Below, one piece after another: positions 22,398 to 64,000 of a stretch of 64,000 bases of DNA. A model generated the notes under the pieces. It ran no database searches. It saw only the letters and a program-made list of their open reading frames with translations, and was not told the origin of the DNA. Made by a program: the position numbers and the translations under genes. The first letter of the stretch is position 1; each line of letters opens with the position of its first letter. The DNA comes from an uncultured virus (IMG/VR IMGVR_UViG_3300023117_001979). Lineage: Duplodnaviria > Heunggongvirae > Uroviricota > Caudoviricetes. Location of the stretch: the IMG/VR virus record IMGVR_UViG_3300023117_001979; one strand, 5' to 3'.

Positions 22398-25135
22398 CGA
22401 ACATAGCAATTTGTGAGCAGAACCCAGGATATATGGGTCGAATGAACGATGGAAAAAGAGTAGCAGTAAGGTCGAGGGATGAACACGGCAACCGGAAGGT
22501 TGACTTCTATGAGGTCCCAGCGGAGTGCTACATTGATTTGAACAACTTCGCTGAGCGATACACTTGGGATGGTCAGAAGAGAGTTAAGTGCAACCCAGCT
22601 AAGGATGTTTTCGACCCTCTTTCGTTTCTTACACAGGACTGGCGTATGGACCGAGCAGGCATCATTGATGTTGAGCCAGGAAAGGGAAAGACCATTGAAA
22701 AGAAGCCTCTCGCTCGCATCACTTTCAATTCTCGTTCTGATTTGCGCAGGTTCCTAAAGGACTACACCCCTGTTTATGGCGCTGACCTTGCACAGGAGGA
22801 CATTTGCGCTATCAGGTATGAAACCGGAAACGAGGACTTTGAGCTACACAAGTGCTACTTTGATATTGAAGCTGTTCAGTTTAAGCGTGATGACCCACTT
22901 AAGGCAGAATGGTTGGTTGATTGGAAAAAAGAAATTTGGCACGACCAGCAAATGGTCAACTCTATTGTTGCTTACGATAACTGGTTGGACACTTACTTTG
23001 TCTTTGCCTGCCATCCTTCGTGGGATGAGGAAATCAACAGTGATACTGACGGGTCTCGACGCATTATCGAAAAGAAGCACAAGACTGAGAAAGCCATGCT
23101 TACCTCTTTTGCTGAATGGTTCTACAAAGCTGACTTCGATGTTATCACTGGATGGAACAGTGCGGGCTATGATATGTCTGTTCTTTACCACCGCATGGAG
23201 TCGCTTCGTGTGCCTCACTGCATGAATGGTGTTCACTTTGAGAACGGACTTATGCCTCGTGAAGTCTACGGTGGAGGTGCTATGTCTCCTTACGGTATCA
23301 TGGATGAGCCGTTTCACAAGGGTGGTCGTGAATACCTTTGGCAACAACAACCACTACGAGGGGTAGACCACCTTGACATGATGGTTGCATTCAAGCGTCT
23401 TTACAAAGACTCCACTAACAACGAATTGGTTTCTTCCCGTTTGGGTCGTGTTGCTCAATTCCTTGAATTGCGTGAAGGAAAGCTAGAATCTCCCGATTTC
23501 TATTCAAAAGACTATCACATTGGCTGGGAGGAATTCCGTAACTACAACATTCGGGATGTAGAATTGCTCGTGCAAATCGACGATGCCTGGAATGTAATCG
23601 GCTCTTACAAGACGGTGCAACAGCTAGTCGGTTGTCAGCTCCGCTCTACTTTCTATGCTACTGGACTTGCTCGTGTCATGTTCAACGAAGAAGCATACTG
23701 GAAGCAGCGAACCTATCCCTATGAGCATGAGTTTGAAGATGACGATGACGACCTTGAGGGTGCTATCGTTCTTGACCCCGAAGAATTGGACTCAGTCGGG
23801 CTACATGACTGGACTGTTATTCTTGACTTCGCCGGTCTATACCCCTCTATCATGTGTGCATACAACACATGTCATTCTTCTAAGGTGCGACCAGGAATGC
23901 CTCACTTAGATGATGATATGATAGGACATAATGGTGTTCGTTTCCGTAAGAACCCTGTTGGTGTTCTTCCCAAGATGGTTCTTCGTCTTGACGAGCAAAG
24001 GGATGAATACAAAGCGAAGCTGAAAGAAGCCGAAGCTGCTGGTGACAAGGTAGCAGCCCGAAAGTGGAACGCTATGCAGCTTTCAGTCAAGCGAATGAGG
24101 GCTTCTTTCTACGGAATCATGGCTTTCCCTAAGTTTTCCTGGTATGACCCTGATATTGCTAAGACCATCACTATGGGTGGTCGCAATGCACTTCTTTCTA
24201 TCAAGGCAAAGGCCGAAGAAGCAGGGTTCAAGGTTGTGTTCGGACACACTGACTCTATCTTCGTTACTATGCCTAAGGAGTGGACTCAGGAGAAGGTGTA
24301 TGAGGAATCTATCACCCTCGCTAAGCAATTGACTGACCATGTTCAAGCCCAATTACGGACTGACAAAGTCGTAGTTGAATTAGAGGCTATCATGGACAAA
24401 TATTTCATCGCTAAGAAAAATCGCTACGCTGGTCGTAAGGCGTGGGATGACAAGAAGGGTTTCCTCAACCTTGACTTCTCCGAAGACGGTTGGCCTGAGG
24501 TTTCCAGGAAAATGTCAGGCATGGAGGCGAAGCAAACCAACACTGCACCTGTTGGTCGTAACATTCAGTTGCAGACTTTGGGTCGTATTTTTAACGATGA
24601 ATCGCCAAGAGAAATCCAAGACAGCATTAAGAATCTTGTAGTTGATGTTCGAAATGGCAACATTGACGACAATGAATTAGTCGCAAATGCAAAGCTCAAC
24701 AAGTGGCTACCACATCATGTTGATTGGCACTGGGGCTATGAGAAAGAGTGTGATTGCGGAGAATGCCCCGAACCAAAAACTGGTGACCAGCGTGACGACG
24801 ATGATTCCTGCTATGCCAAGAAATTTTGGTCTGCTACCGCAGCATTGTTCCACAATGATGTTCTTTCTGACGACTCAAAGGGGTATGTGAAGCTCGATAA
24901 GGGTGATTCGTTTAGCTGGGTGCATGTTTGTGATGGGCCGACTGCGATTCCTAAGGATGGTTGGGTTGGTTTCTATGACCTAGAGCAAATTGCTGACTAT
25001 ACCCTGGATTACGCACTTTTGGCTGAGAAGCATGTAATCAAGAAGCTAGAGAACATCTACTTTGGTATGGGTTGGGACATTAACGAATTGTATGAAAAGA
25101 AGCGCTATTCTCTTGATGACTTCCTTTCAGCATAG
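22394..25135 (+). CDS. polB: family B DNA polymerase with 3'-5' exonuclease
   Basis: ExoI FDIE, ExoII GWNSAGYD, ExoIII YNIRDV; motif A DFAGLYPS, motif B K...SFYG, motif C GHTDS, KKNRY. Confidence 0.96.
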   Translation: MTNIAICEQNPGYMGRMNDGKRVAVRSRDEHGNRKVDFYEVPAECYIDLNNFAERYTWDGQKRVKCNPAKDVFDPLSFLTQDWRMDRAGIIDVEPGKGKTIEKKPLARITFNSRSDLRRFLKDYTPVYGADLAQEDICAIRYETGNEDFELHKCYFDIEAVQFKRDDPLKAEWLVDWKKEIWHDQQMVNSIVAYDNWLDTYFVFACHPSWDEEINSDTDGSRRIIEKKHKTEKAMLTSFAEWFYKADFDVITGWNSAGYDMSVLYHRMESLRVPHCMNGVHFENGLMPREVYGGGAMSPYGIMDEPFHKGGREYLWQQQPLRGVDHLDMMVAFKRLYKDSTNNELVSSRLGRVAQFLELREGKLESPDFYSKDYHIGWEEFRNYNIRDVELLVQIDDAWNVIGSYKTVQQLVGCQLRSTFYATGLARVMFNEEAYWKQRTYPYEHEFEDDDDDLEGAIVLDPEELDSVGLHDWTVILDFAGLYPSIMCAYNTCHSSKVRPGMPHLDDDMIGHNGVRFRKNPVGVLPKMVLRLDEQRDEYKAKLKEAEAAGDKVAARKWNAMQLSVKRMRASFYGIMAFPKFSWYDPDIAKTITMGGRNALLSIKAKAEEAGFKVVFGHTDSIFVTMPKEWTQEKVYEESITLAKQLTDHVQAQLRTDKVVVELEAIMDKYFIAKKNRYAGRKAWDDKKGFLNLDFSEDGWPEVSRKMSGMEAKQTNTAPVGRNIQLQTLGRIFNDESPREIQDSIKNLVVDVRNGNIDDNELVANAKLNKWLPHHVDWHWGYEKECDCGECPEPKTGDQRDDDDSCYAKKFWSATAALFHNDVLSDDSKGYVKLDKGDSFSWVHVCDGPTAIPKDGWVGFYDLEQIADYTLDYALLAEKHVIKKLENIYFGMGWDINELYEKKRYSLDDFLSA

Positions 25136-28100
25136 CGTTTTCCTATCTCTAGGTCTTTACCTGCGGTAATTGCTTCAACCATTCCATCTAGGTTGTCGAT
25201 AGTACCCATAATTGGGTGAACGCGTAGTGACTTTCCTGGGTCTTCTCCACCTATTCCACCTAGTAGTGAAGTAGAGTTAGCGACCATGTGTCCACTCTTT
25301 CCTAAGCCTGAAAGGTAACCTGTACTGCCCATATTATCAATCAAAGCATCAATGTAGCGAATGTCTAAGTCACCTAGCCCGGATTTACTATTCATCTGCT
25401 GGTTAAAAATTTCTTTAATACCCGCTAGAGCGGCTTCGAGACCAAAAGAATGAGCAATCCAAAAGGGGTCATTACACACGGTTAGGTACTCATCATAGTA
25501 CTCGCCAATTAACTCATATGCGTTCTCCATCATTGGGTTTGTTTTACCTGGCTTTGGCTTAGCGGGTCCTTTAATTACAATAGACCAACGCTCAGGACCA
25601 CCTGTTGGGTGAGCACCATGCTCACTAAATGCTCTTCCTCCGTTTATTAGGCCATGAATTTGATACTTGCCTAGTGACTCTTTCAATACAAGTAGGTATG
25701 AATCAATATCTAAGTATTCAGGAGTACCATGCGTTCTAACTCTTAGGCCCCCTTCTATTTCATTTACTGAAAACACTGGGCTATGACTGCTACCTTTGTA
25801 AGTCAAGTACTCTTTAACGAATTCCAAGTCCACTTCAAAGGTGTTTACTACTTCCATATCGAATACAATATCTATGGCTCGCTCATCAGATAGATACCTA
25901 AACACAGTCGCTATGTCATCTATGTAAAGTGTCGAACAGAAGTTAGCTAGCTTCTTAGCGTAATATTCATCATTGTATTCTTCTTTCAAAAAGTACTGCG
26001 TCACTGGTTGTTGAATGGCGGAGCGTGACAAATCTAGAATCTGAATAATACGGTCTGTTGTGGGCACTGTTCCTTTACCACCACCGTGAAACGCCCTAAG
26101 CCCAGCTTGTGTTACTGGTTCACCAACATTTGCAGCTCCTGTTGCACCAATCATTTCACCAGCGCGAGCTTTGCTTTCATTGTAATACTCGTAAGCGCGA
26201 GCAAAGTATTCAGCAGGGTTTTCAATTTCTCGCGCTTCGAATTCGGGGTCAATTTTTTCGCGCAGCCTTGACGAAATATTGAGGGGCAATCGTCCTAGCT
26301 TGGGAGTATTTTTGTACAGTGTTCCATCTTGACATGTGTCACATTCATCAAACAGTGTAATTCCATGCCTACACAGCTGTGACAAAAAGTGTGGCTGAAG
26401 TGAAAGTGAAAGTCCGTCTGAGTTATCGGGTCCTCGCGCATGGAATGGTTGAATCCCATCTTCACCAACTTGTAGCGACAAAACCTTGCCCAATCGCATA
26501 TTTACCAAATAGCCTCTATCGTCAATCATCAAGTTTTCAGATGCGCGCTTAAGTCGATGCTCAAGATAGCCCGACTTTTGAATCGCGCCCATTGATGATT
26601 CCATCGCGACGCGGCGGCCAGCGACAGACGCAAGGAAGTATTGTTCAGGAGAAAACCCAGTAGCATAAGAGTCCGGATTAAAGCCAAAAGCTTCTCCTGA
26701 GTAATCACCTTCTTTGAAGTGTGGCAGTAATCGACCTACCTTATTACCACTCATCAACCGGTTTCCACCTACTCTCACTTGCCCATATGCCCCTGACATT
26801 TGCTGAATGTTCAAATCACTAGCACGGGCCCCTGAAACAACTGCAATAGCCATTTGGTTTGCTGTACCTTGCAGCTCTTTGGTAAGTTTGATAATTTCAT
26901 CATCAAAGTCATTAGTGATATTTGCTACTTGCAATTCCATCCATGCAAGCGGGTCGTAAGTAAGCCAATGTCGGGAGTTTTCGGTGAAATAGTCATCAGG
27001 TAGGTTCTCTAGAGTCCTGTTAAAGAAAGCCTCAGTTATAACCCTAATTTTTTCATTCGCTTCGTCATAAAGTTGCTTCTTTTTCTCAATAAACTCAGGA
27101 GCGCTGAGCGATACATCCTCGATACCAATAGTATATCCGACATACAAATGAGCGGCGAAGAATAGACGATTTATGTGGTCAATGAAATCTGCTAGCATTC
27201 TAATGCCCAGCTCGTAATTAAAGTGATAAACAAAGGCAGCTCCTAGCACCATTGACCCGTTTTTGACACCCTTTGCATCAAGAGTACCATAGAGAAGCTT
27301 GCCGTTTTCTATTCTTGCTTCTGCTCCAGTTTTGTCTTTCCAAACACAATTAATTCCTTCGGGAATGAACATAGACACTACGGACTTGCCAGTGTAAAAC
27401 TTCTTGTAGTCAGGTTCGGGTAATGACTTGATGTAACTGAGGGTTCCTTCGTCATCTCTAGTGTACACTAGTCCGAGCATTTCAATGAGAGCCTTCTTCG
27501 AGAAGTAAACATACCCGTCTTTGTCGTAGCCGATTCCCCCTACTTTGTTGTAAGTACCATACGGCCCCTTGAACGACTTTTTGTCATCGTCTTCAAGCCG
27601 TTGATAGTCATTGTAAGAGATTTCTATTTCGTTGCCCTTCTTATCCTTGCCCCGATATACCAACTTGCTCTTGTTAGGGAAAGTAAGCAAGTAGGCACCT
27701 GATGTTTCGTCTTGGTCAGAGGCAATAGTAGGCCTACCATAGCGAGAGTGAATAATTTGCTTATTTACATCTAGAATATCTTTTGCTTCTTGGATAGCTT
27801 CGGGTGACTGTGGCACAAAGCAACGCATAGTATCGCCATCGTAGTCTGCGTTAAACGGCACACAAATAGTAGGGTTGAAACTAAATGCATGTTGTTTGAG
27901 CGGAACCACCTTGCCTGCCATTACATTCTGACGATGAAGAGCAGGGGCGCGGGTAAAAAGAATAATGTCGTGCTTTCTTAGCCCTCTATGAACAATATCG
28001 CCAATTTTGAGAGTGTCTGCTAAAATGGTGCGGAGGCTCTTTCCATACTCGTATCGATACTCTCGACGCGCCTGTTTGATTTCTTTTTCTTTACCTGCCT

Positions 28101-30111
28101 GGTCATCCCTACCACGATACTTGGCATTAATTCCTCTTAGAATCTCTTGATACCATACATTTTGTGCTTCAGGGTTTACCTGCCTCCCCAAAGAATCCAC
28201 TTCGAATGGGTCATAACGACTATTGGTTTCTTGTAATAGGCTAATTTTTCCTTTGCGAGCGCTCATCTTTTCAATATACTTGGCACCCCCAAAGTAGTTT
28301 TCAAAATCCCAACTATCGAGAGGTATTATTCCTTTTTTATCAGGTGGACAACCTTTCTTAACTGCTTCTCGCAAATCTTCGATATTTTCCTTTGTGACCC
28401 GCTCAGCAACAGTCATGCGAATACATGCTCCCATAGGAACACCGACTTCGTCTATTCTAAGCGAAGGGTTAGGAGTGATTACAGAATACATAGTATGCTC
28501 AGTGACTTTGGACTGGTTAATTCTTCGGATGTGGTTTTTCTTCTCCCCCGCTGGCTTAATGCGGTCATAAACGCCTTCTAGTGCTTCAGTTACTAGTCCA
28601 CTCCCGCCAAACTTTTGCTTTACAGCAGGTGTGCCAAACGGGCTTTGTGAAGTAAGAGCCTGAGTGCAGGCCTTGAACAAAGTACTCTCGCTACGAGCGA
28701 ATTTGGCTTGGTCCTCATACATGTCCAGGAGCTTCTGATTCACTCTTACAATGTTGATATACAGCTTGTCTAAGTCATTCATTTCTAAAGCACCATTAGG
28801 AGTTTCTTGTGGTGGGCGAACAGTGTTAGGTGCAATTGGAAATACATCCCAAAACAAGTAACTTGGGTGTGAGCGAGGTGCTCCTGTTAATTTGTCAACT
28901 TCAGTATTGAAGCTCAAAGCTAGAGCATGGTCGTTGGGGATTTTCTTCAAAGACTGGTAAACTACATCATATCGGTATACTTCTTTTCTTGGGAATTCAT
29001 CTTTTGCTCGTTCACCAGGCTTAGGAAAAAATTCTGCAGGCCGCCCAAATCCATATTGCATCTTAAACATGAGAATAGGGCTCTTTTCATCACAGTGCGG
29101 GCAGTGATTTACTTTCGTACTTAGGGGCGTCTTAACTGGGCCACCTTGGGCGATTTGATATGGCCCCAGGTCTCTTTTTGCTTCTCTGTAATAGTATTGG
29201 TAAGTTTCAGCAATAGACTTCCAAATAATGGCTGAGCCTTCCGGGCTAGTCATTTTGTTTTCATACATGACTTTCTTTGCTTGAGCAATTAATGGCTCTA
29301 AGTACTCGTCAGGCAAGACAACCTTGTGGCAATTTCGACATGTATATTTGAGAGTCTTTACTAAAGGCGAAGAATCAATATCACCGGTCAAGTAAAGGTA
29401 ATTAGGGACTGGGACTGCTAGCTTTATTCTTCCAAAGTGCCCTGGGCAGGAGTATTCCTTTGCCCCTTCTATGTTTGCAGTATGTCCACATGTGTAACAA
29501 GCATTACGCCCATGACTTCCAAGTCTTAAATCAGCTACCCCACCATGAATTGGTGCAGGTATGTCAGGAATCATCGTTTTACTTTGGCGCGGGGTTTCGT
29601 ATACTTCAGCATGGCGGATAACTCGGTCTCCACTTAGTAGCATAATTTCTTCAGGGCTCATCATATGATGATAGATTGCCCCTACTGCTTTTGATTCTTC
29701 ATGTAAGGTAGTGTTTGGATAAACTAGAAATCGAGCAGAAATTGGTCCTTCAATTACATAGCCTTCAAAATCAGTTTCAATCTGAACCCGGTCTGACACA
29801 TCTAGAATCTCAGTATATAGCCAATCTTCAGGTTCCGGGTCTCCGTTAAGGTAACCAGCTGTATCTTCAAAGGGCTTATTTGCTATTTTGCAGATAATTA
29901 GCGGCCCTACTTTACTTCGTAAGTTAGCGGCGTTTGGCGAAAGACGATACCACCGATATGCTTCACCTGAAGTCCTAGGAACCCATCGGATTGTGTCAAG
30001 ATTAAATTGAATGTATTTTTGGTTGTCTATCTCTTCTATTTCGTCTTTGCTAAAGAACCAATAAAACTCCTTAACTAGAGGAATTTCATTAGTGGTGTCT
30101 TGAATTACCAA
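25105..30111 (-). CDS. rpo1: DNA-directed RNA polymerase largest subunit (fused Rpo1N+Rpo1C / Rpb1-like)
   Basis: Clamp Zn sites CYTC...CPGHFG and CRNC...CPHC; RAPALHRQN; catalytic PFNADYDGD; SGARAS..NIQQM; bridge helix ...KSGYLEHRL; trigger loop GEPVTQAGLRAFHGGG. Confidence 0.95.
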   Translation of the reverse strand: MVIQDTTNEIPLVKEFYWFFSKDEIEEIDNQKYIQFNLDTIRWVPRTSGEAYRWYRLSPNAANLRSKVGPLIICKIANKPFEDTAGYLNGDPEPEDWLYTEILDVSDRVQIETDFEGYVIEGPISARFLVYPNTTLHEESKAVGAIYHHMMSPEEIMLLSGDRVIRHAEVYETPRQSKTMIPDIPAPIHGGVADLRLGSHGRNACYTCGHTANIEGAKEYSCPGHFGRIKLAVPVPNYLYLTGDIDSSPLVKTLKYTCRNCHKVVLPDEYLEPLIAQAKKVMYENKMTSPEGSAIIWKSIAETYQYYYREAKRDLGPYQIAQGGPVKTPLSTKVNHCPHCDEKSPILMFKMQYGFGRPAEFFPKPGERAKDEFPRKEVYRYDVVYQSLKKIPNDHALALSFNTEVDKLTGAPRSHPSYLFWDVFPIAPNTVRPPQETPNGALEMNDLDKLYINIVRVNQKLLDMYEDQAKFARSESTLFKACTQALTSQSPFGTPAVKQKFGGSGLVTEALEGVYDRIKPAGEKKNHIRRINQSKVTEHTMYSVITPNPSLRIDEVGVPMGACIRMTVAERVTKENIEDLREAVKKGCPPDKKGIIPLDSWDFENYFGGAKYIEKMSARKGKISLLQETNSRYDPFEVDSLGRQVNPEAQNVWYQEILRGINAKYRGRDDQAGKEKEIKQARREYRYEYGKSLRTILADTLKIGDIVHRGLRKHDIILFTRAPALHRQNVMAGKVVPLKQHAFSFNPTICVPFNADYDGDTMRCFVPQSPEAIQEAKDILDVNKQIIHSRYGRPTIASDQDETSGAYLLTFPNKSKLVYRGKDKKGNEIEISYNDYQRLEDDDKKSFKGPYGTYNKVGGIGYDKDGYVYFSKKALIEMLGLVYTRDDEGTLSYIKSLPEPDYKKFYTGKSVVSMFIPEGINCVWKDKTGAEARIENGKLLYGTLDAKGVKNGSMVLGAAFVYHFNYELGIRMLADFIDHINRLFFAAHLYVGYTIGIEDVSLSAPEFIEKKKQLYDEANEKIRVITEAFFNRTLENLPDDYFTENSRHWLTYDPLAWMELQVANITNDFDDEIIKLTKELQGTANQMAIAVVSGARASDLNIQQMSGAYGQVRVGGNRLMSGNKVGRLLPHFKEGDYSGEAFGFNPDSYATGFSPEQYFLASVAGRRVAMESSMGAIQKSGYLEHRLKRASENLMIDDRGYLVNMRLGKVLSLQVGEDGIQPFHARGPDNSDGLSLSLQPHFLSQLCRHGITLFDECDTCQDGTLYKNTPKLGRLPLNISSRLREKIDPEFEAREIENPAEYFARAYEYYNESKARAGEMIGATGAANVGEPVTQAGLRAFHGGGKGTVPTTDRIIQILDLSRSAIQQPVTQYFLKEEYNDEYYAKKLANFCSTLYIDDIATVFRYLSDERAIDIVFDMEVVNTFEVDLEFVKEYLTYKGSSHSPVFSVNEIEGGLRVRTHGTPEYLDIDSYLLVLKESLGKYQIHGLINGGRAFSEHGAHPTGGPERWSIVIKGPAKPKPGKTNPMMENAYELIGEYYDEYLTVCNDPFWIAHSFGLEAALAGIKEIFNQQMNSKSGLGDLDIRYIDALIDNMGSTGYLSGLGKSGHMVANSTSLLGGIGGEDPGKSLRVHPIMGTIDNLDGMVEAITAGKDLEIGKRYAERKSSRE

Positions 30112-30112: not shown

Positions 30113-30550
30113 TCAACCCCTCGCTGCTGTATATGCTAGCCAATCCGCCATTTCATTTAACTCCGTGCCGACATGTGCCTTTACCCATTGGTACTGAGGC
30201 ACTCCATTTAGCTTATCTTCTAGCTTTCTTATTCTTGCTATTGCTTTAACTAAGTCGGGCTGCTTGATATTATAGTAGTCAGAAAGACCTTCAACTACCA
30301 TTTTAGAGTCACTGATGATTGTTATATGGACACTAGGGCCTAGATTTCTGGCTACTAAGTCCTCTAAAGCCAATTCGACTGCTAGGAATTCCGCCATATT
30401 ATTGGTAGTCACGCCGACATACTCTCCGTGTAGGTGAAGAATATTGCCAGTGATTTTTTCGACAATGACATAGCCAGCTCCGCATTCTCCTTTGCTATCA
30501 CGGTCACTGTCTTTGACGCAACTGCCGTCGGTCCAAACTTCATACTCCAT
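30113..30550 (-). CDS. rnhA: ribonuclease HI
   Basis: TDGSC, TNNMAE, SDSKMV, WVKAH, NEMADWLA. Confidence 0.93.
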   Translation of the reverse strand: MEYEVWTDGSCVKDSDRDSKGECGAGYVIVEKITGNILHLHGEYVGVTTNNMAEFLAVELALEDLVARNLGPSVHITIISDSKMVVEGLSDYYNIKQPDLVKAIARIRKLEDKLNGVPQYQWVKAHVGTELNEMADWLAYTAARG

Positions 30551-30817
30551 TCAAACACCCTTTATTACACGATACTTGACCTTTGTACGGGCTTCTTCTC
30601 TATCGCTATCTTCGGGGCTAAACTTACTTCGGACAACGGTTATCTTTACTACTGAGTCAATCGGCGTTTCTTCACCTTTCATTCGTAAGTGACTAAGCGC
30701 CGCGTCTTCATACATTAGGGCTGGCAGCTCTTCAATTTTAATTGAAAGAGCTTTCAAAACAGCATCTGCTTCTATGGGCGAAAGAACCTGGTGGTCGGGC
30801 ATCAAGTAGTGCATCAA
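30551..30817 (-). CDS. rpoH: RNA polymerase subunit H (Rpo5/Rpb5 C-terminal domain)
   Basis: HYLMPDHQVLS..E...L..L.I..EELP.L...D.A...VVKI...S...YRVI. Confidence 0.88.
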   Translation of the reverse strand: MMHYLMPDHQVLSPIEADAVLKALSIKIEELPALMYEDAALSHLRMKGEETPIDSVVKITVVRSKFSPEDSDREEARTKVKYRVIKGV

Positions 30818-31057
30818 CTAAGCGCAGGTACTTCCTCACCATGAATGTACTGCTCAATCTGCCCTATTTCATGACCAACTACTTTGGCACGATAGACAAT
30901 AAAAAGCGTTCCTAGGAAAATAAGAATATCACTGAAGACAAAACCAACTAGAATTGTCAATGACAAGTACAAAAAGCCCAAAATTGCTGCAACAACGAGA
31001 ATACGCTGACGAGACTTTAGGTCGTCTAACTCATAATGAATAAAGCTGGTATTGAAA

Positions 31058-31537
31058 TCACCAGTCTTCATCATTATCCCAGTCCCAGTCATCGTCGTCG
31101 TCGTCATCATCGTCGTCGTCATCGCTTTCTTCTTCGTCATCATCGAGACCGGCAAGAAGTCCATCTAAGTCATCGTCGTCATCGTCGTCGTCATCTGACA
31201 AAATGATAGCCTTTGCTTTCTTTGGCTTGTCTTCGCCAAGCTCTTCCCAATCAGGAATATTGTCATAGTCAAAGTCATCTTTCTCAGGAATCTTAAGCTC
31301 AGGACGCTTTTTCTTACCTTTAGACATAGCGGCTTGAACCATAGATGGCTTAGATTCTTCTCCATCCTCTTCATCTTCGGGCTCATCGAACTCGATGGCA
31401 CTTAGATTGAGGTCACTATTCTTTTTTAGAGCAAGAGTTGGTTCAACCCAGCTTTCTAGCTTTTTCATCGCTGATTCGTCATTCATAGCTTCAACTTCAA
31501 TAGTCAAGTAGTAGGTGAAAACCTGCTTTTCTGCCAT
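31058..31537 (-). CDS. protein with very acidic (poly-Asp) C-terminal tail
   Basis: 159 aa, two long Asp runs near the C-terminus. Confidence 0.7.
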   Translation of the reverse strand: MAEKQVFTYYLTIEVEAMNDESAMKKLESWVEPTLALKKNSDLNLSAIEFDEPEDEEDGEESKPSMVQAAMSKGKKKRPELKIPEKDDFDYDNIPDWEELGEDKPKKAKAIILSDDDDDDDDDLDGLLAGLDDDEEESDDDDDDDDDDDDWDWDNDEDW

Positions 31538-31584
31538 GAGTATGTATCAGCTTCATTCTGACCTTAAACCTAAGTATTGGTTTA

Positions 31585-31788
31585 ATGACTATGTATACTT
31601 TCACAAGCCTTATATGCACCGGGAAGATGCACATAGTAATGGGCACCGATGATGCCATGAGTGCTATTAGGGTTCGTAAGTACGATATTGACCGCCTAAA
31701 GCATTTTAAAATTAATAACGAGTCTATTTGGGAGACCTTGGCGAGGATTCTCAATGAATATCATCATAGCCAAGTTAACAAGGAGTAA
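31585..31788 (+). CDS. ribbon-helix-helix DNA-binding protein (start probably internal, MGTDD/MSAIR)
   Basis: SAIRVRKYDIDRLKHFK...ESIWETLARIL resembles archaeal RHH proteins. Confidence 0.6.
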   Translation: MTMYTFTSLICTGKMHIVMGTDDAMSAIRVRKYDIDRLKHFKINNESIWETLARILNEYHHSQVNKE

Positions 31789-31793
31789 TAGAA

Positions 31794-32105
31794 ATGGCAA
31801 AATTTGCGCGAACAGTGTCAAAAATCGAACAATGCTTTAGAGTTTATGAAGACTCCCTGGAAGTGGATGTTCTTTCCTTCCATCAAATTCGTGATTGGTA
31901 TAACGAGCAAACCAAGGATGGAATTACTTCTGCTCGCCTAATTAACCTCCTTCGCAAGCGTCCTCAGTTTGTTTGGCAACATACCGAGCGTAAAATTGGC
32001 TCAAATGAAACATTGACCTTTTGGTCTATGAACAAAGAAGTCAAGCTGCCTAACCCTGCAGATGGTTGGGTGGTTATTGAGCAGGCAGCTCCGCTATCGT
32101 GCTAG
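31794..32105 (+). CDS. putative winged-helix protein
   Basis: LSFHQIRDWYN..TK.G.TS.RLINLLRK.PQF. Confidence 0.6.
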   Translation: MAKFARTVSKIEQCFRVYEDSLEVDVLSFHQIRDWYNEQTKDGITSARLINLLRKRPQFVWQHTERKIGSNETLTFWSMNKEVKLPNPADGWVVIEQAAPLSC

Positions 32106-32135
32106 TAGTACTACCCTAAGAAGCGCTACAATATG
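32105..32135 (+). promoter_or_regulatory. bipartite element copy 1: GTAGTACTAC-N8-GCGCTACAATATG
   Basis: Identical architecture in 4 intergenic copies. Confidence 0.8.
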
Positions 32136-32180
32136 AAGCGAGGGAACTGCCCTCCTTCAAATATATTAGGAGGTAAAAAC

Positions 32181-32357
32181 ATGAATGAAGATTTTGTATT
32201 CGAAGGTGAAACTTACATTATCGTAGACAAAGTTCCGGAAAATGTTCAGCAAATGTGCCGTTATAGCACAGGAAGCGTGGACAACTATTTCATCGGAAAA
32301 AAGATGATTTTCTGGAAGTCTGCCGGTTGGAAGTTTTACACCACAACGAACCTGTGA
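32181..32357 (+). CDS. small hypothetical protein (MNEDF...)
   Basis: AGGAGGT RBS before ATG 32181. Confidence 0.6.
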   Translation: MNEDFVFEGETYIIVDKVPENVQQMCRYSTGSVDNYFIGKKMIFWKSAGWKFYTTTNL

Positions 32358-32439
32358 AATCTAACTCATCAGTTTGAACGCCAGACTAGCCACAAGGAGG
32401 GAGAAAAACCGGCTAGCAAAAGTGCGGTAAGCACAGGAT

Positions 32440-32682
32440 GTGAAGAAAATATCACAAAATGAAAAAACAAACGAAGAAGAGCTAGTTCCCTGTAAGGGGA
32501 TTATCTACATGTCAGTACAAGGCGGAAAGGATTTCTACGACCCATGCCCCCACAACAATAAGGTCCCAGTAGGGACTGAAAACGGGGGCGGAGAAACCTG
32601 TATCGAATGCAGGAAAGAAAACTCCCGTAGCTACATGAGCCGAACCCACATATCTGGCGGACGCCCAGTAGCACCTATTTGA
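32440..32682 (+). CDS. small Cys-containing hypothetical protein
   Basis: 80-aa ORF, C...C...CIEC. Confidence 0.5.
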   Translation: MKKISQNEKTNEEELVPCKGIIYMSVQGGKDFYDPCPHNNKVPVGTENGGGETCIECRKENSRSYMSRTHISGGRPVAPI

Positions 32683-32702
32683 AGGCACAAGAGCTCTTCT
32701 TT

Positions 32703-32779
32703 GTACCACATCCAGGTCACTGACCTGTCCAACCCGCCCCTGTGCGCCAAGGCTCGCAGGGGTGGCCAAGTGCGGTAAG
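32703..32779 (+). ncRNA. conserved three-way-junction RNA motif, copy A
   Basis: Homologous to 36780-36857, with a 10-bp stem of different sequence but the same pairing. Confidence 0.7.
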
Positions 32780-32796
32780 CACAAGCAAATGTCAAG

Positions 32797-32827
32797 GTAG
32801 TACTACCTTGGCGAGCGCTACAATATG
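32797..32827 (+). promoter_or_regulatory. bipartite element copy 2
   Basis: GTAGTACTAC cttggcga GCGCTACAATATG. Confidence 0.8.
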
Positions 32828-33230
32828 GAGCGAGGAGAAGACCTCGTATTCAATTAGGTGAAAAACTTGGATAGAACCCATGCTGTCAAGGAGGTTCTAG
32901 AAGGGATGTACGGAAAGCAGCGAGCATAACCTCGTCGTGAAACCGGTAGGAGGGCTTGTACCTCTGAGGTTGAATTTCCCGCATTCATATAGAATCTTCA
33001 AAGCATCAGTTTAGGGGCTCTTGGGTGAAATAGACCTGGAGCGACCCGTGACCCCGGTCAGAGACTATGCGGTTCAACAAACTCAGAATGTGCCACTCAG
33101 CGTAAAACCTGAGTCTGCACAGCCTACGGGCCGAGAAATAGACAAGCGAGTAGCCACGAAGCGTGGGACAAACAGTAGCTAGTTAGCCAATAGGCGATAT
33201 ACAGTTACTGATTGTGAATAGTAAACAACC

Positions 33231-33608
33231 CCCAACGGTGTTCGAGCCGACGGGGTTGGGATGGACTTAGAGTGGATTGCGCCGTAGATTCGGCTTAAAC
33301 TCAATGAAAATCCCGTTACAGAAACAACCAAAGCTGCCCTGAATTCAGTGCAGATGGTTGGAACTTTCCTTGGATGGAAGTACAATGTATGAATGCCGTC
33401 GCCTAAGTGCAGGGCCGCCACTTTCAATGGCCTGCTCAGAACGGATATGATGCTGGAATTGGGGTGAAATCCCAGTTATGAATGCATCTGTGCATGTATG
33501 CCTGACCATGGGGAACGATAGGAGAGGATGTTCACGCAACCTCTCCTATTAGCGAGGTAAAAATCGCCCAAGTCAAAAAAGTTAGCCCAACGGTGTTCGA
33601 GCCGACGG
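33231..33608 (+). repeat. 23-nt direct repeat CCCAACGGTGTTCGAGCCGACGG (33231-33253, 33586-33608)
   Basis: Exact match read from the sequence. Confidence 0.9.
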
Positions 33609-34250
33609 CTGCTTTGGCCTCTGCAACCGGTGAAGCGGACCGGAGGCCCCAAGACTTGGAATTAGGCTGTGGTAGCCAATCTTACATGTGAAAGCTGAGT
33701 CCGAGTAACCAACGGAACAATGAAGCTTTCAAGCAAGAAGCCGAATGCTTGCATTCGGCCTTCACATATCAGGAGGAAACCAAAAATTCTCCTGTATATA
33801 TGGGCACCAGGTGTATTCCTGGTGTACCGGGGGTCAGGTACATGTTTACCATGTCCTGGCTCCCAAGACCATATCAGTGAGTGGTGTAACTGATTGGAAG
33901 GTTGTTGGACAACCTGTATGGTATGCTAGCTTATGCTAGAAGTGCCTCCAACTAGAAGATTAAGTGCATTACGCACACACACAATTTACCACACTCGCCC
34001 GGACTCGATTTATCGAGTCTTTACATTATCTTGAGACTAAAATAGGGCTTAAGCCCGGCGAACCTATCACCGTAAGGATGGTGGGTAAAGTCGCACAGTA
34101 ATTTATTAGCTCTCTTCGGAGAGAAACAGAAATCCAGCTACCAGCCTCACGGCTGAGACTAATATACGCCCACATAAAGGGACCTCACCGGATAGAGCCG
34201 AGGGTCCTGTGGTGCGCGGAAGTTGGATGATAATGTAACTACAAAATATA

Positions 34251-34284
34251 CCAGGGTAGCGTTAAAACTGCCCTGGTTTTTTTT
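34251..34284 (+). terminator. hairpin + T8 terminator-like element
   Basis: CCAGGGTAG-cgttaaaa-CTGCCCTGG then TTTTTTTT. Confidence 0.8.
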
Positions 34285-34292
34285 GTATCAGT

Positions 34293-34301
34293 ATAAGCGT
34301 G
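34293..34301 (+). promoter_or_regulatory. ATAAGCGTG gene-start motif (first of about 27 ATAAG(C)GTG copies to 63946)
   Basis: Recurrent motif at gene starts in the right half of the window. Confidence 0.8.
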
Positions 34302-34526
34302 GACACTGGATTATTCAGGACCAATGTAGGTTTGACCTACTTCCGTCAAGCAAAGATGGAAAAACAACTTACAGACGAGCAGGTGCTTGAGCTGTACACA
34401 TCGATACTTCGTATCGAAGCCAACGCAATCCGCCAAATGGAAGAGATTGCTGGCACTGCCGACCAATGGCGGAAAGACCAGGCTGAGGCTAGTCATGCCT
34501 TGGCAAAACAACTCCGTGACCTCTAG
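34299..34526 (+). CDS. small coiled-coil hypothetical protein
   Basis: GTG start within the ATAAGCGTG motif. Confidence 0.6.
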   Translation: MDTGLFRTNVGLTYFRQAKMEKQLTDEQVLELYTSILRIEANAIRQMEEIAGTADQWRKDQAEASHALAKQLRDL

Positions 34527-34546
34527 TCGCGTGAATAAGTGTATCA

Positions 34547-36763: not shown

Positions 36764-36779
36764 GTTCTGAACGACACAA

Positions 36780-36857
36780 GCACAACTCCCAGCTCACTGA
36801 GCTGTACAACGGGAGCAGGGGCGCCAAGGCTCCCCTGTTCCCCCCTGTGTAGGTAAG
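36780..36857 (+). ncRNA. conserved three-way-junction RNA motif, copy B
   Basis: Homologous to 32703-32779. Confidence 0.7.
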
Positions 36858-36963
36858 TCTCCAAGCCTGCCTAGGTCTTCGACCTGAGGCGAATACATTG
36901 ACCACTAGGTTTCCCCCCTTTGTTGGTCTTTGCTTGGCTTGTCATAAGTGAAATTGTATTAGC

Positions 36964-38721: not shown

Positions 38722-38785
38722 GCAAAAAGGGTGTGTTTAAGCTAAATCTCCATTTTCCCCTGGAGCTGCGGCTTGCCGATAAGTC

Positions 38786-45920: not shown

Positions 45921-45928
45921 ATGTAGTA

Positions 45929-46968: not shown

Positions 46969-46997
46969 AAATGACTTTGGCAATTCAAAAAATTCCT

Positions 46998-47033: not shown

Positions 47034-47057
47034 CTTATACTTGTACACAGGTCATTA

Positions 47058-48340: not shown

Positions 48341-48344
48341 ACCA

Positions 48345-50240: not shown

Positions 50241-50260
50241 AATTGTATTAGGTAGGATAA

Positions 50261-52174
50261 ATGTCACAAGACAAAGTATACCAAAATTTCGTGGAAAAGA
50301 GAGCAAACCTCTCTAATACTTCACGACTTCTGCAACTGTGGAAAGCCACAGAACCAGGAGTAATTATTGAAACGCCAGAAATGGCCGAGACTGTAAGCGA
50401 AATTACTCGACTTGCAGCAACACCGGAAGCTCGTAATATTGCCCCTAAATGGCTTGGCGAGCGTCCTGAAGTGGTTAGAGTTTCTTTCTCTAACTACCCA
50501 CAAGAACTCCGTGTAATCGAGCCAACAATAACGAAGCTCGCTAACGGAAAACAAACGGTTACCTACACCAACCCAATTGAGGGTGATGGTGATTTTAACC
50601 CAATGGATGGCAACGCGAAAGTGATGCCTTACGGAGACCCAGTCGATGTGCCTGAAAACTTCTTGGAACCATTTCCAAAAAGCGCGCACACTAAGATTTT
50701 GGGTGCTTCGCAACGAGTTAAATTCCGAGCTAGGGCTGACCCTGAGAGCATTATTATGACTTTCTTGGAATCCCTTGACGAATTTGATTCACAAAAAAAT
50801 GGACGAGGACGAATTTATGTTGTCGAAGCCGCAGAAAATATGTTGACCCTGAAAACCATGGTCGAAATGCTGCGTGAAAAAATTGACATGTTCCGAAACC
50901 AGCAAACGACTGGTCTCGCGATTGTTCTTCTTGTTCCACTTGGATTCGATAAGATGCCTGACAGCATCAAAGAAAGTTTCTTCAGTATGAAGTGGGAGCG
51001 ACCCCATAAGACACACTGGCGTGACTTAATCCAATCATTCGCTGCGGCCAAAAATATGGTCATGGACGAAGATAGCAACGGAAACCCGATAGTGGGTGTT
51101 TCAGCTAAAAACCTAGAGCGTTGTGTCAGTGCTGTTACTGGTATGACTAAAGCTCGTGGTGAAGCTGCCTTGCTAATGTGTACTGCAAAGTACAACAAAA
51201 TTCTCCCTGAAGTAATTCTAAGAGAAAAGTCAAACCTGGTTAAAGACTACGGATTGACACTACACAACCCTGACCCTGATGAAGCGGTTGGGGGCATGCA
51301 ACAATACCACGAATGGTTAGCGGAAGAAATCGCATGTGCGACCCCGCTTGCTGCTGGATATGGACTTGTTGGTAATCGAATGGTTATCCTAGCAGGTCCT
51401 CCAGGTACGGGTAAGTCGCTTGGTGTAAAGGTGCTTGGCTCCATGACTGGTCGTCCAATTGTTCGACTAGCTGCAACTGACCTTCGTAAGAAGTATGTCG
51501 GTGACGGAGAAGCACGACTACAAATCGCCATTGACTTGGCGGGTAGCATGGACGGAATCATTTGGATTGATGAAGTCGAAAAGCTAGTACAAAACACATC
51601 AGCAGAACGAGATGGTGGCTCAAGTGCCTCCGTTCTCTCTATTTTGTTGACTGAGATTCAAGAGAATAAGTCGAACATTATGTTCGCATTTACAGCAAAC
51701 CGCGTCGAAATGCTCCCCCCGGAGTTTGTTGACCGTGCTGGTTCTCGATTTTACTTTGGCTATCCTACGCGTGAGGAGCAACTTGCGATTCTTCGCATTC
51801 ATATTGCTGCTATGCGTAGGTACGAGCCAGATAACCCTGAAGCCGATGAGCGTGGCTATGCTCGCCGGAACCCTGACGACTATCCATTCTTGGAAGAACT
51901 CCTGAAGTACACCGATGGATGTAACGGTCGCCAGATTGCGAATGCTGTTCAAGCAAGCTTCAAAATTGCGTTCACCACACACCAAGGTGAGCCAACAAAG
52001 GAAGACTTCGTAAAGGGTATCAATCGAAACGCTATGAATTCCACTCCCCAAAAGGAGTTGGAGCTTATTCGCGACAACTGTTTGGCTCGTGGTTTCATCC
52101 CAGCCAATTCCGAAACTGAAGAAGAAGCTGAGTCTGTCGACTTCGGTGAAGTAGGAATCGCAGGTCGTCTTTGA
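50261..52174 (+). CDS. Ycf46-like AAA+ ATPase
   Basis: VGGM, Walker A GPPGTGKS, KYVGDGE, Walker B IWIDEVEK, TANRVEMLPPE; inactive N-terminal AAA-like region. Confidence 0.88.
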   Translation: MSQDKVYQNFVEKRANLSNTSRLLQLWKATEPGVIIETPEMAETVSEITRLAATPEARNIAPKWLGERPEVVRVSFSNYPQELRVIEPTITKLANGKQTVTYTNPIEGDGDFNPMDGNAKVMPYGDPVDVPENFLEPFPKSAHTKILGASQRVKFRARADPESIIMTFLESLDEFDSQKNGRGRIYVVEAAENMLTLKTMVEMLREKIDMFRNQQTTGLAIVLLVPLGFDKMPDSIKESFFSMKWERPHKTHWRDLIQSFAAAKNMVMDEDSNGNPIVGVSAKNLERCVSAVTGMTKARGEAALLMCTAKYNKILPEVILREKSNLVKDYGLTLHNPDPDEAVGGMQQYHEWLAEEIACATPLAAGYGLVGNRMVILAGPPGTGKSLGVKVLGSMTGRPIVRLAATDLRKKYVGDGEARLQIAIDLAGSMDGIIWIDEVEKLVQNTSAERDGGSSASVLSILLTEIQENKSNIMFAFTANRVEMLPPEFVDRAGSRFYFGYPTREEQLAILRIHIAAMRRYEPDNPEADERGYARRNPDDYPFLEELLKYTDGCNGRQIANAVQASFKIAFTTHQGEPTKEDFVKGINRNAMNSTPQKELELIRDNCLARGFIPANSETEEEAESVDFGEVGIAGRL

Positions 52175-57643: not shown

Positions 57644-58435
57644 GTGGGACTAGAAATTAACCTACAATTTACTGCAAAATCCGTGGCGGAGCTTAGAGAA
57701 CAGCTGACAGCTGCTTTGAGTGAGCTCAACGGAAGCGCAGTGGTGGAAACACCAAACAAGGCTACGAAAACCGAGAGGCCTAGTGCTGAGACTCCTAAAA
57801 AGGAAAAGAAGCCTAAAAGGCCTAAGAAAACGGTAAGGCGACCTAAAGCGCCAAAGGCTAGCTTAGAATGTAAAAGCTGCAAAGCAACGAGCACCCCTCA
57901 ATGGCGCCGTAAAACGGCTCCTGAAGGGCCTCTTTGTAATGCATGTCACATGAAGCTATACAAAGCTGAAAGAGCGGCCAAAAATAGCCCAAAAGAGAGT
58001 AGTGCAGAACGGTCTAGGCGGATTCGCCAAGAAAAGATTGGGTCTGCAGCTGCCTCAAAAAAGAAAAACAAACCTAAGGTAGAGAAGCTAGAGTTTGAAC
58101 CTGCTGAAAAAATCGAAGCGGATATGTCCACTGAAGCATTTTACTTGTGGGCCCAGTCATACTTGCCAGGAATGGTGATGCGTGACAAAACCTTCCTTGT
58201 TGCTTCTAAGGTCATTGAGACCTGGTTTACTACCCTAAGGCCACAGTCTGAATATGACAAGTGGTGTCTTAAAAATTTACAAACATTTACTGATGAAACT
58301 CGTAAGATGTTTGAAGTTTACCAAAAGGTACACCCTACCATTTTGATGATTCAAGATGCCGGGGACAATGTTGTACTTATGGTGAATAACCCGTCGGCCC
58401 TGACTTTTTCAAAGTTAGAAGGCCTACTGGAGTGA
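57644..58435 (+). CDS. GATA-type zinc-finger protein
   Basis: CKSC-KATSTPQWRRKTAPEGPL-CNAC (CX2CX18CX2C with TPxWR and LCNAC), flanked by Lys-rich segments. Confidence 0.85.
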   Translation: MGLEINLQFTAKSVAELREQLTAALSELNGSAVVETPNKATKTERPSAETPKKEKKPKRPKKTVRRPKAPKASLECKSCKATSTPQWRRKTAPEGPLCNACHMKLYKAERAAKNSPKESSAERSRRIRQEKIGSAAASKKKNKPKVEKLEFEPAEKIEADMSTEAFYLWAQSYLPGMVMRDKTFLVASKVIETWFTTLRPQSEYDKWCLKNLQTFTDETRKMFEVYQKVHPTILMIQDAGDNVVLMVNNPSALTFSKLEGLLE

Positions 58436-58794: not shown

Positions 58795-58992
58795 GTGAGT
58801 AACGAAAGTACTTTACAAACTAGTCTGCTAGAGGCTTCAAACGAAAACAATCGTCAATTGAAGCGAATTGCAGATAGCTTGGAAGAACTCCTTTCAATGA
58901 TAAAGGGCGTTCAACCAGCTGAACTTGCGAAAAAGGCAAAGGAGCACAAAAAAGCTCAATCAAATCTGAAAAGGAGGCGAAATAATGAGTGA
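58795..58992 (+). CDS. small coiled-coil protein
   Basis: GTG start in ATAAGTG; LKRIADSLEEL. Confidence 0.65.
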   Translation: MSNESTLQTSLLEASNENNRQLKRIADSLEELLSMIKGVQPAELAKKAKEHKKAQSNLKRRRNNE

Positions 58993-60295
58993 CGAATTAT
59001 TACAAATGGCCCAAAGTTTGGGTTGTTCACCTACATTCGTTGAATTTGAAATGCTCCCGGTTACCTATTCGCAAATTGTACTGGTGGCGGGTCTGATTAT
59101 TACTGACTCTCACCAACAAACTGGACCTAATTATGATGCCAACCAGCGTACAAGGTTTGACCTTTGTACTGAAGTAGGTGATAATGGTCTTGCGATTATC
59201 TTCAACAACCATAACGGTGGTACTACTGGAGAAATCGTTTTCGACGCGCCAAAGTTTAGGCGTTCAAGTCGACACATAATTAATGCTCAAATTGACATGT
59301 CGCCAGGAGACTTTAGGCCTATGGTTCGTAACCGAAGGGCCACTTTATCTATTGGTGACATGGGCTTGATTATTAGCAGTACCGATGACAATGAAATGCT
59401 ACAAAAATACGGTCAACGAGCGGTTCGACGCTATGGTTATCGTAATTACAACAATCGTAGTCACTTTACTAGTCTAGGATTTAATGTAAACTGCAACCAA
59501 GGAATTCAAATTCAATATTCTTGGAACAAAAATGAGCATGTTTATGGCTGGTCAAATAATACAGGTCACGCACAAACTACGGTTATTCCGTTCTTTGGAA
59601 CAGAAAAGCCGACTAGAATTGAGCCTGTATTTGAAGCCAAATTCCCTTATGACACATTTAAAAAAATGTTGAACAGTTCGGGAAGAGCCAAAGATAGTGG
59701 TGGAGCTCTTTATTGGAGCTACAACCCTAAAACAAAGAAAATGTACACTGTTGGCGCATATGCTAACGGTGAAATTTCAAAAGAAGGTCGTACATACAAT
59801 ACTTCAGCTTGGGTACATAACAGTGTAACTGAGCTAATTGCAGGGACAATTCCCTACCGGCCTTTTGGTGAAGCAATTGTAAACCGATACAAAACAGCTA
59901 CCCATGCTGGATTTGGCATGGATGCACATGGTCGGCAGTACATTTGTATTTACTACCCATGGGGTCATATTCGATATAACCATATTACTTTTTCACATGG
60001 TGTAATCGAAGATGAGTCTGTGAGTGATATTTCGGGGCCAAAGGTCTCGTTAGAAAAGAATGCACCTGCGTTCTTTGAAAACTACGATTTATCATTTGAG
60101 TACTCGCCTTATACCGCATCTGAGGAATTATTTCTCAACAAGTGGTACGCAGTATTCAACGAATACCAAGAAGAGCAACTTTCGCGGCCTAAACTGCCGA
60201 AAAAAGGTGAAATTCTTCAATGGTATATTTGTTTTTGTCAGAATGGAGATGTTACTGATGAGGACGCACTGCTAGCTCAGAAAATTTTGAGCTGA
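58985..60295 (+). CDS. hypothetical protein (436 aa)
   Basis: AGGAGG RBS; long ORF. Confidence 0.75.
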   Translation: MSDELLQMAQSLGCSPTFVEFEMLPVTYSQIVLVAGLIITDSHQQTGPNYDANQRTRFDLCTEVGDNGLAIIFNNHNGGTTGEIVFDAPKFRRSSRHIINAQIDMSPGDFRPMVRNRRATLSIGDMGLIISSTDDNEMLQKYGQRAVRRYGYRNYNNRSHFTSLGFNVNCNQGIQIQYSWNKNEHVYGWSNNTGHAQTTVIPFFGTEKPTRIEPVFEAKFPYDTFKKMLNSSGRAKDSGGALYWSYNPKTKKMYTVGAYANGEISKEGRTYNTSAWVHNSVTELIAGTIPYRPFGEAIVNRYKTATHAGFGMDAHGRQYICIYYPWGHIRYNHITFSHGVIEDESVSDISGPKVSLEKNAPAFFENYDLSFEYSPYTASEELFLNKWYAVFNEYQEEQLSRPKLPKKGEILQWYICFCQNGDVTDEDALLAQKILS

Positions 60296-63943: not shown

Positions 63944-64000
63944 GTGACTGATGAAAATTCAGAACAAATTGATGCTAACTCCCAGGAGGGAGTAGTATTC
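63944..64000 (+). CDS. 5' end of next gene (partial, MTDENSEQIDANSQEGVVF...)
   Basis: GTG of ATAAGTG opens a frame that runs off the window. Confidence 0.55.
   Translation, partial: MTDENSEQIDANSQEGVVF

Follow-up and report, generated by a model that had tools for sequence, protein, structure and literature searches.

The window analysed here, a 64,000-nucleotide (nt) stretch of DNA, forms part of a 135.7-kb contig assigned to an uncultured virus (IMG/VR record IMGVR_UViG_3300023117_001979), and, judged by its genes, it matches magrovirus group D, a type of virus-like element that the literature ties to marine group II archaea. One minus-strand operon ends with genes for an Rpb5 C-terminal domain protein, an RNase H and a fused largest subunit of RNA polymerase (Rpo1), and from 32 kb onward there is a plus-strand block with structured RNAs, designated R1-R4, and two recurrent signals, a 31-nt bipartite element (E) and the short motif ATAA(GC)GTG. 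We consider it probable that this is a magrovirus D type element with a hybrid polymerase, in which two private signals punctuate the plus-strand block and R1-R4 are conserved structured RNAs. The RNAs and the two motifs appear to be new; the element class and its gene for RNA polymerase (RNAP) A are already known.

Alignments of the window with its relatives clearly point to four or more RNAs that are structured, conserved and non-coding, R1-R4, which add up to about 1.2 kb, all on the plus strand; large structured RNAs had been proposed in an earlier note on this DNA. R1 (33873-34249) was aligned in 16 sequences (alignment A2) at 74-93% identity, against 67-76% in the flanking genes, and its 123 predicted pairs are paired in 97.1% of alignment cells, with 31 compensatory pairs versus 17.0 +/- 2.1 in shuffles (reached by 0 of 500) and 4-10 with slid partners. 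R2 (45534-45925), which a tandem ATAAGTG precedes, has 127 predicted pairs in 14 sequences (A3), 97.0% paired, and 29 compensatory pairs, where shuffles give 13.7 +/- 2.1 (none of 500 reaching 29) and slid partners 3-8. R3 (46675-46860, helices 3-10) and R4 (47046-47300, helices 17-27) share one alignment (A4) with 191 pairs, 91.5% paired, and 47 compensatory pairs, compared with 26.4 +/- 3.1 in shuffles and 10-15 when slid; a covarying hairpin of R4 carries ATAAGTG (47070) in its loop. Substitutions are flat across codon positions, at 245/237/221 in R1, 146/139/150 in R2, 124/113/104 in R3 and 103/98/84 in R4, unlike four coding controls with a two- to five-fold third-position excess, and insertions and deletions (indels) are mostly non-triplet (triplet versus other: 6 and 82, 0 and 63, 3 and 37, and 1 and 57, respectively). 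As far as the alignments tell, R1-R4 are under stronger sequence constraint than the neighbouring genes. Behind the third copy of E lies a further conserved hairpin region (45426-45510, plus strand; 81-94% identity, 15 non-identical relatives), with 3 triplet versus 25 other indels and a variable-length insertion site at about 45507. Two intrinsic-terminator-like hairpins occur on the same strand: one with a T-run ends unit 1 (34250-34285), is among the two top-listed plus-strand sites of the scan and has a covarying stem (helix 16), one pair being GC in 8 sequences and AU in 7, and the other, with T8 (46998-47031), is the first-listed site and kept in 9 of 9 relatives; the scan itself places the two sites at 34250-34277 and 46998-47021. 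Just upstream of the latter, a 27-amino-acid (aa) open reading frame (ORF; 46885-46968, plus strand) is kept as protein in all 9 aligned relatives (substitutions 28/20/43).

At gathering score, the covariance models of Rfam, including those of GOLLD and ROOL, matched nothing in the window or in 20 related loci, and 32000-34600 had no match at E <=1. Two tandem manA-like folds on the plus strand (46119-46308 and 46341-46539; RF01745, 29.9 and 33.7 bits, E 6e-5 and 4.5e-6) stay below the gathering score of 55.2 bits; they align over model positions 1-192 of 192 with several non-canonical pairs, and there are only 3 homologous sequences, the cargo that holds the folds being common only to the window and the related loci L133 (30.9 bits) and L144 (32.2 bits). 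According to the accessible text of Weinberg et al. 2010 (PMC2864571), manA RNA lies in the 5' untranslated regions (UTRs) of sugar, nucleotide or photosynthesis genes and is carried by cyanophages and gamma-proteobacteria; the folds described here share with that RNA a marine, virus-borne setting, as full-length, sub-threshold tandem matches, and they differ from it in lying outside the 5' UTRs of such genes and in having an archaeal carrier. Contigs that belong to a close relative of the element are binned in an archaeal metagenome-assembled genome (MAG), G003. Among 201 genomes from the order that includes G003, BLAST matched R1 in one, on the element contig only, so that R1 is not a host RNA.

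Three ORF-poor blocks (32.1-34.5, 45.4-47.5 and 48.3-50.3 kb) correspond to what had been described as about 5 kb of ORF-poor, heavily base-paired sequence. The blocks themselves were found, but they enclose small real or likely genes (32181-32357, 32440-32682, 46885-46968 and 48128-48340), and conserved pairing was shown for about 1.2 kb of them (R1-R4) and not for the variable parts. All six frames of each block carry all three stop types, which rules out alternative genetic codes; a six-frame ORF-gap measure was uninformative. The variable ORF-poor RNA segment of the first block (32828-33872, plus strand), a putative cassette cargo, separates the second copy of E from R1 by 1040 nt in the window, by about 166 nt in the relative L151 and by about 350-930 nt in others. 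It contains an exact 23-nt repeat (33231-33253 and 33586-33608) that includes GTTCGAGCC, T-loop-like by eye, and an exact 16-nt repeat further upstream (32420-32435 and 32768-32783) is the hairpin AAGTGCGGTAAGCACA, a variant of which lies inside R1. The third block (48341-50260, plus strand; RNA contigs 48360-50231 and 48471-50122) is hypervariable and its structure is putative; it opens with a 43-nt inverted repeat (48402-48538; 91% complementary, 51-nt loop), and it yielded no arrays, no informative repeats and no alignable relative. We consider it very improbable that gene decay, spacers or long UTRs with no separate function account for the ORF-poor blocks. Block 3 and the middle of unit 1 are indeed unalignable between relatives, and the minimum free energy (MFE) z-scores of block 3 (-13.4 and -5.2) are no better than that of a coding control (-8.7), which does not separate the two. 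Yet block 3 keeps its place, its size of 1.5-2.1 kb and its lack of ORFs (no stop-to-stop ORF >125 aa) in the window and five further syntenic relatives that have almost no mutual similarity there, and R1-R4, for which decay was already unlikely, covary and exceed the neighbouring genes in conservation.

Metatranscriptome contigs offer a hint that R1-R4 are far more abundant than the flanking mRNAs in RNA libraries, and to that extent, as a hint from assembled contigs, their high depth fits the idea that the large RNAs are major dedicated transcripts. The stretch 31800-34800 is contained in 24 metatranscriptome runs, four of which (X1, X4, X10 and X20) were compared over 31001-51000. Summed contig depth at 45675-46341 was 10320, 1058, 24004 and 305 in these four runs, respectively, and about 66-127, 23-144, 23-199 and 0.8-12 in gene bins. 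Across 45.7-47.7 kb, RNA contigs reached about 2-350 times the flanking-gene depth, with the highest values at 45.7-46.3 kb, the bins of 46342-47675 being raised as well; the bin 33669-34335 was almost uncovered in X4. Uniform carry-over of DNA cannot explain the depth steps between contigs of X1, where the contig 46132-47133 had a depth of 1122 and its neighbours 127 and 66. Adapter sequence at contig ends points to fragment ends that recur: left ends of this kind were located at 45534 (2 of 4 runs), 46013, 47584 and 33025, and right ends at 33446, 33538 and 36780; the single orientation of all adapters points to plus-strand RNA if, as we assume, these are dUTP libraries.

The bipartite element E, GTAGTACTAC-N8-GCGCTACAAYATG (31 nt, also written GTAGTACTAC-N8-GCGCTACAATATG), is present in four exact plus-strand copies with a fixed 8-nt spacer. 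E1 (32105-32135) overlaps the TAG stop of the ORF 31794-32105; E2 lies at 32797-32827; E3 (45395-45425) has ATAAGTGTG 12 nt upstream; and behind E4 (45929-45959) come a hairpin and a T6 run (45960-45995). The palindrome at <=1 mismatch has 7 matches versus 1.06 expected, a number that 0 of 100 shuffles reach. Public metagenome contigs, scanned with the first 27 positions of E, gave 77 stretches, from which 60 distinct copies with enough flank were extracted; both halves are invariant in these (2 bits at 10+13 positions), a purine-rich run comes right after the ATATG, and the 45 nt after this start fold at an MFE of -13.9 kcal/mol versus -8.0 for shuffles. The element is therefore far beyond chance and conserved in relatives; a search of IMG/VR with the bipartite pattern returned 0 matches, and on 14 distinct metagenome contigs, as well as on contig C15 of G003, a fused rpo1 has E on its upstream side at a distance of about 2 kb. 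The suggestion of the earlier note that RNA segments start right after this element holds for E2, E3 and E4 but not for E1, behind which lies a small predicted gene of 58 aa (32181-32357, plus strand) with a strong ribosome-binding site, AGGAGGT, and then a possible 80-aa zinc-ribbon ORF (32440-32682); the 58-aa ORF has no non-identical homologue within the set of relatives, and the third block has no element.

E might instead act chiefly as a DNA-level recombination junction similar to the PeSLs of T4-like phages, or as an RNA processing or dimerisation hairpin, and not as a promoter of the RNAs, which we regard as rather unlikely, though the junction and promoter roles are compatible. Alignments with relatives lose homology where E1 and E4 have their 3' edge, in 20 distinct contigs for E1 (32131-32159) and in 12 for E4 (45963-45971), the cargo behind E varies in length and content, E is transcribed through, and it contains a perfect 10-nt palindrome with weakly complementary flanks. 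In the accessible text of PMC4122927, PeSLs are composite terminator/promoter motifs that mediate cassette exchange, and E resembles them as a repeated composite motif bordering hypervariable cassettes; it differs from them in a largely non-coding RNA cargo, in being built of a palindrome and a fixed 13-mer, and in its archaeal host. Against a junction as the chief role, a T5+ run lies <=80 nt behind E in just 5 of 60 copies, so that E is not a general terminator, summed RNA depth rises downstream of E2, E3 and E4 (a hint only), and the invariant 13-nt second half ending in ATATG, with its purine-rich start, resembles a fixed initiation region.

The second signal, noted earlier as ATAAG(C)GTG and as recurrent in 32-64 kb, likewise exceeds expectation (ATAAGYGTG, 8 matches versus 0.81 expected). 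Its better form is ATAA(GC)GTG, with 27 plus-strand copies (34293-63946) at or slightly upstream of gene starts; searched as ATAAG[CT]G, all 27 plus-strand copies fall within 34293-63940, with none earlier on that strand and 6 on the minus strand. In 59 related loci, no other 7-mer is as strand-asymmetric as ATAAGTG (118 versus 10), and 40 kb of the G003 contig C21 contain the motif 30 times on one strand and once on the other, 15 of the 30 opening ORFs of >=100 aa. The GTG of the motif directly opens an ORF of >=100 aa in 10 of the 27 window copies and of >=43 aa in 15, the copy at 63944 running off the window; behind the remaining copies, at 10-54 nt, comes an ATG preceded by a sequence of Shine-Dalgarno type. 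In gene 44633, seven relatives keep the N-terminus VEQFT.DTTLEYF from codon 2 onward despite synonymous changes, and the DNA upstream of the motif is unalignable, so that the GTG is the true start; with this start no Shine-Dalgarno sequence can precede. Over 140 distinct motif instances, information is limited to positions -4 to +2, with no AT-rich box upstream. By eye, genes in 1-32 kb share no upstream motif. Sigma-70-like promoters were also considered and were rejected (27 versus 26.3 expected).

It is quite possible, if not the reading we favour, that ATAA(GC)GTG is an RNA-level cleavage or translation re-initiation signal within long polycistronic transcripts and neither promoter nor initiator; cutting between AUAA and GUG would then free leaderless mRNAs as well as mature RNAs. 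Consistent with this, no upstream element is conserved across the 140 instances, the stop codons of preceding genes lie 0-8 nt before the motif, the hairpin that holds ATAAGTG in its loop covaries (helix 17, with 3 of 13 pairs changed on both sides), and deep RNA contigs of 5897 and 6210 nt span many motif sites. On the other side, no candidate endonuclease was identified in the analysis, and, as weak hints, the three shallower runs list 16 contigs for 34.5-45 kb, of which 14 cross no motif site, and 9 begin at a distance of 9-54 nt behind a motif or the start of a gene. The late genes of poxviruses (TAAATG) and of T4 (TATAAATA) have short virus-specific initiators overlapping the start codon, and a sliding clamp activates late transcription in T4. 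ATAA(GC)GTG is like them as a 7-9 nt motif that is found at nearly every gene of its block and overlaps the start codon, in a virus with polymerase parts and a clamp-fold protein. It is unlike them in that it may act in RNA, its promoter role being putative, and in that its block consists of replication genes and not of late structural genes.

The RNA polymerase subunit genes named in the earlier note were both recovered. Rpo1 (25105-30111, minus strand) is a 1668-aa fusion of A' and A'' with Pfam Rpb1 domains 1-5 (E 2e-32 to 4e-13); its nearest PDB relatives are archaeal Rpo1N (4qiw_A, E 3e-80), and it extends through the A'' region, which archaea normally encode as a separate gene. The catalytic NADYDGD (N754-D760) is intact, and invariant across 24 aligned clade members. 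RNase H (30113-30550; PF00075, E 1.7e-17; phrog_531) and an Rpo5/RpoH-like subunit (30551-30817; Rpb5_C, PF01191, E 1.7e-9) lie next to it on the same strand. The polymerase gene of the element is not new, having been published since 2017: the accessible text of Philosof et al. 2017 (PMC5434244) gives "DNA-dependent RNA polymerase A" for magrovirus group D. Searching 5.8 billion proteins with Rpo1 gave 172 matches at E <=1e-10, and the top 26 (30-89% identity) are all fused and lie on contigs of <=135,841 bases; GenBank phage records held no carrier of this protein, a single-protein scan of IMG/VR confirmed nothing, and a profile scan of IMG/VR found only a clade at 30-34% identity. Both motifs are confined to the clade whose Rpo1 identity reaches at least about 46%; neither occurs near rpo1 in the 30-34% clade. 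MAG contigs with Aenigmatarchaeota and Nanohaloarchaea labels (L152, L153 and L154) have a continuous 3.4-3.6 kb match to Rpo1 residues 136-1677 at 24-32% identity, and a fused Rpo1 may therefore occur in some DPANN cells too.

Where the earlier note spoke of an autonomous gene-expression system, the searches for a second large subunit gave no support. Neither an Rpb2 domain nor an Rpo2-like protein was found by Pfam among the proteins of the window, and an orphan protein of 1130 aa is not Rpo2-like (hhalign probability against host Rpo2 0.4%; 0 profile matches in PDB). Rpo2 was likewise not found on the three element contigs of the close relative in G003, namely C12 (9.7 kb), C15 (36.5 kb) and C21 (44.9 kb), about 88 kb after overlap, nor in two distant relatives, G002 (140 kb, terminal repeats, CheckV 100%) and G001, and the sole Rpb2 of MAG G003 sits in the host rpo operon on contig C1. 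We judge it unlikely that Rpo2 and other subunits are encoded elsewhere on the element as part of a fully autonomous transcription system that reads both motifs. Such a system would be in keeping with the encoded Rpo1 and Rpo5, the intact active-site motif, the limitation of both motifs to the clade of higher Rpo1 identity, and the 71 kb of contig beyond the window, and against it stands the absence of Rpo2 from the places searched. Given that absence, the most likely reading is that the element polymerase operates as a hybrid, together with subunits of the host.

The other genes of the window agree with this assignment to magrovirus group D. They include a family B DNA polymerase (22394-25135; PF00136, E 2e-35), a thermosome, or group II chaperonin (623-2173; PF00118, E 3e-137; closest PDB chains archaeal thermosomes), and a Resolvase of the serine recombinase type (18216-19139), which together with RNAP A form the gene set of group D in the accessible text of PMC5434244; a PD-(D/E)XK nuclease is encoded as well. 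Group D, according to Xu et al. 2023 (PMC10160649), has no structural genes, shows enrichment in the cellular size fraction and may resemble plasmids. The present element is similar to the group as portrayed in the available portions of these two papers in its gene set, its marine origin, the absence of a recognisable capsid module and the contig size of 110-140 kb, and goes beyond them with Rpo5, a clamp-fold protein and the RNA islands. Non-coding RNAs, promoters, motifs and polymerase biology of group D are unreported in the literature searched, a coverage that leaves out subscription journals and supplements. The thermosome of the relative in G003 is 89% identical to that of the window, other copies in G003, G004 and G005 reaching <=42-44%. 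Past the position where the window ends, this relative (G003:C21:20001-40000, locus L165) encodes two primase-small-subunit-like proteins, an HNH protein, a second SAP protein, a second RNase H, a Rad52-like protein and an MCM helicase; capsid, portal and terminase families were not recognised there. The window begins inside a C-terminal Peptidase_G2/pre-neck-appendage domain (1-279, plus strand), typical of phage tail-spike proteins, which hints at virion genes upstream. Further observations concern a GmrSD-type (DUF262/DUF1524) nuclease (15746-17479, minus strand), normally a defence enzyme against modified DNA, and the stretch 13005-13960, ORF-poor at 80 aa, yet with four small minus-strand ORFs (61-78 aa), two of them with cysteine pairs. 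A tRNA scan of the window found none.

Among the neighbouring proteins of the plus-strand block, the nucleic-acid-binding partners proposed earlier were partly recovered, as a 738-aa protein with a SAP domain (34547-36763, plus strand; PF02037, E 6e-6) and a GATA-type zinc finger protein (57644-58435, plus strand; PF00320, E 8.9e-8), but Pfam reported no HEH-like domain in the window proteins. A 436-aa orphan (58985-60295, plus strand), conserved in 25 relatives, is predicted to adopt a sliding-clamp fold: its AF2 model (pLDDT 79, pTM 0.75) matches PCNA, 9-1-1 and beta clamp at E 2.5e-9 in Foldseek, as well as viral clamps, a fold that sequence searches missed. PDB sequence searches gave nothing for four orphan proteins, and an Atlas search nothing for the 436-aa protein and one of 585 aa. 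The 1.9-kb hypervariable block is flanked (47580-48340 and 50261-52174) by a 182-aa orphan, a DUF2997-like gene of 70 aa (48128-48340; 22.9 bits versus a gathering score of 24.1) and a 637-aa AAA ATPase with weak clamp-loader PHROG matches. The ATAA(GC)GTG block includes the clamp-fold protein and, in the close relative, also primase-like, HNH, SAP and RNase H genes; it is not a late structural block.

The arrangement that we favour can be put as a sequence of steps. The viral Rpo1 and Rpo5 would redirect the host enzyme to the two signals, of which ATAA(GC)GTG, whether through initiation or through cleavage, would set the 5' limit of each expression unit; in about half of the cases it supplies the GTG start, which would give a leaderless GUG mRNA without room for a Shine-Dalgarno sequence. 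E, at the head of exchangeable cassettes and with a stable covarying hairpin behind it, would act as a strong promoter or leader specific to the element and, at the same time, as a junction for recombination. The R1-R4 units lie behind or between E and ATAA(GC)GTG, two of them closing at the hairpin and T-run terminators, and the RNAs may, as our best guess, be trans-acting scaffolds or decoys for element or host proteins. Several points weigh against this arrangement. There is no TATA box or B recognition element (BRE) before ATAA(GC)GTG, and intergenic spacers are often <15 nt; the R4 hairpin encloses ATAAGTG, which favours recognition in RNA over a promoter; and the adapter-tagged left ends at 45534, 46013, 47584 and 33025 do not match the G of the motif. 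For E, the flanks of the palindrome are weakly complementary (3.83 versus 3.31 +/- 0.12), again in favour of recognition in RNA, and the RNA contigs 31898-33960, 32176-33150 and 39870-46079 bridge E1-E4, which are therefore transcribed through and may act in RNA. The RNA data are all assembled contigs, which carry no starts, ends or strand and measure RNA levels poorly. The structures of R1-R4 (RNAalifold) derive from the same alignments as the pair counts, and the relatedness of the sequences inflates the shuffle test. Sought as a complementary target of the invariant R1 loop, the window gave only R1 itself, and G003 the R1 homologue and one match with 2 mismatches, the control also giving one. 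Rpo2, finally, may lie in the remaining 71 kb of the contig.

A bolder version, speculative and improbable as it stands, would have the element swap its fused Rpo1, along with Rpo5, into the polymerase of the host, so that the hybrid skips TATA/BRE and initiates between ATAA and GTG to give leaderless GUG mRNAs; E would drive modular RNAs in very large amounts, and a self-complementary GUAGUACUAC loop common to these RNAs would pair them into RNA or ribonucleoprotein (RNP) assemblies for propagation. If true, such assemblies could explain the absence of recognisable capsid genes.

Large structured non-coding RNAs of phages and bacteria include GOLLD, ROOL and OLE. R1-R4 are like these RNAs in being ornate, conserved, virus-carried, of undefined function and highly expressed (here a hint only), and unlike them in being several and shorter (190-390 nt), in their cassette arrangement behind a common 31-nt element and in belonging to an archaeal element. 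Virus-borne large structured RNAs have so far come mainly from bacteria and phages, and an archaeal set in exchangeable cassettes would widen this class by four or more new RNA families that covariation supports, together with a hint that these RNAs dominate the transcript pool of the element. A virus that brings only the largest polymerase subunit would represent an unusual route to the takeover of host transcription. Group D magroviruses, which are abundant in the ocean, may be viruses, plasmids or something else, a question of nine years' standing; the window gives this group a testable expression anatomy, with two invariant signals that can be searched for in metagenomes.

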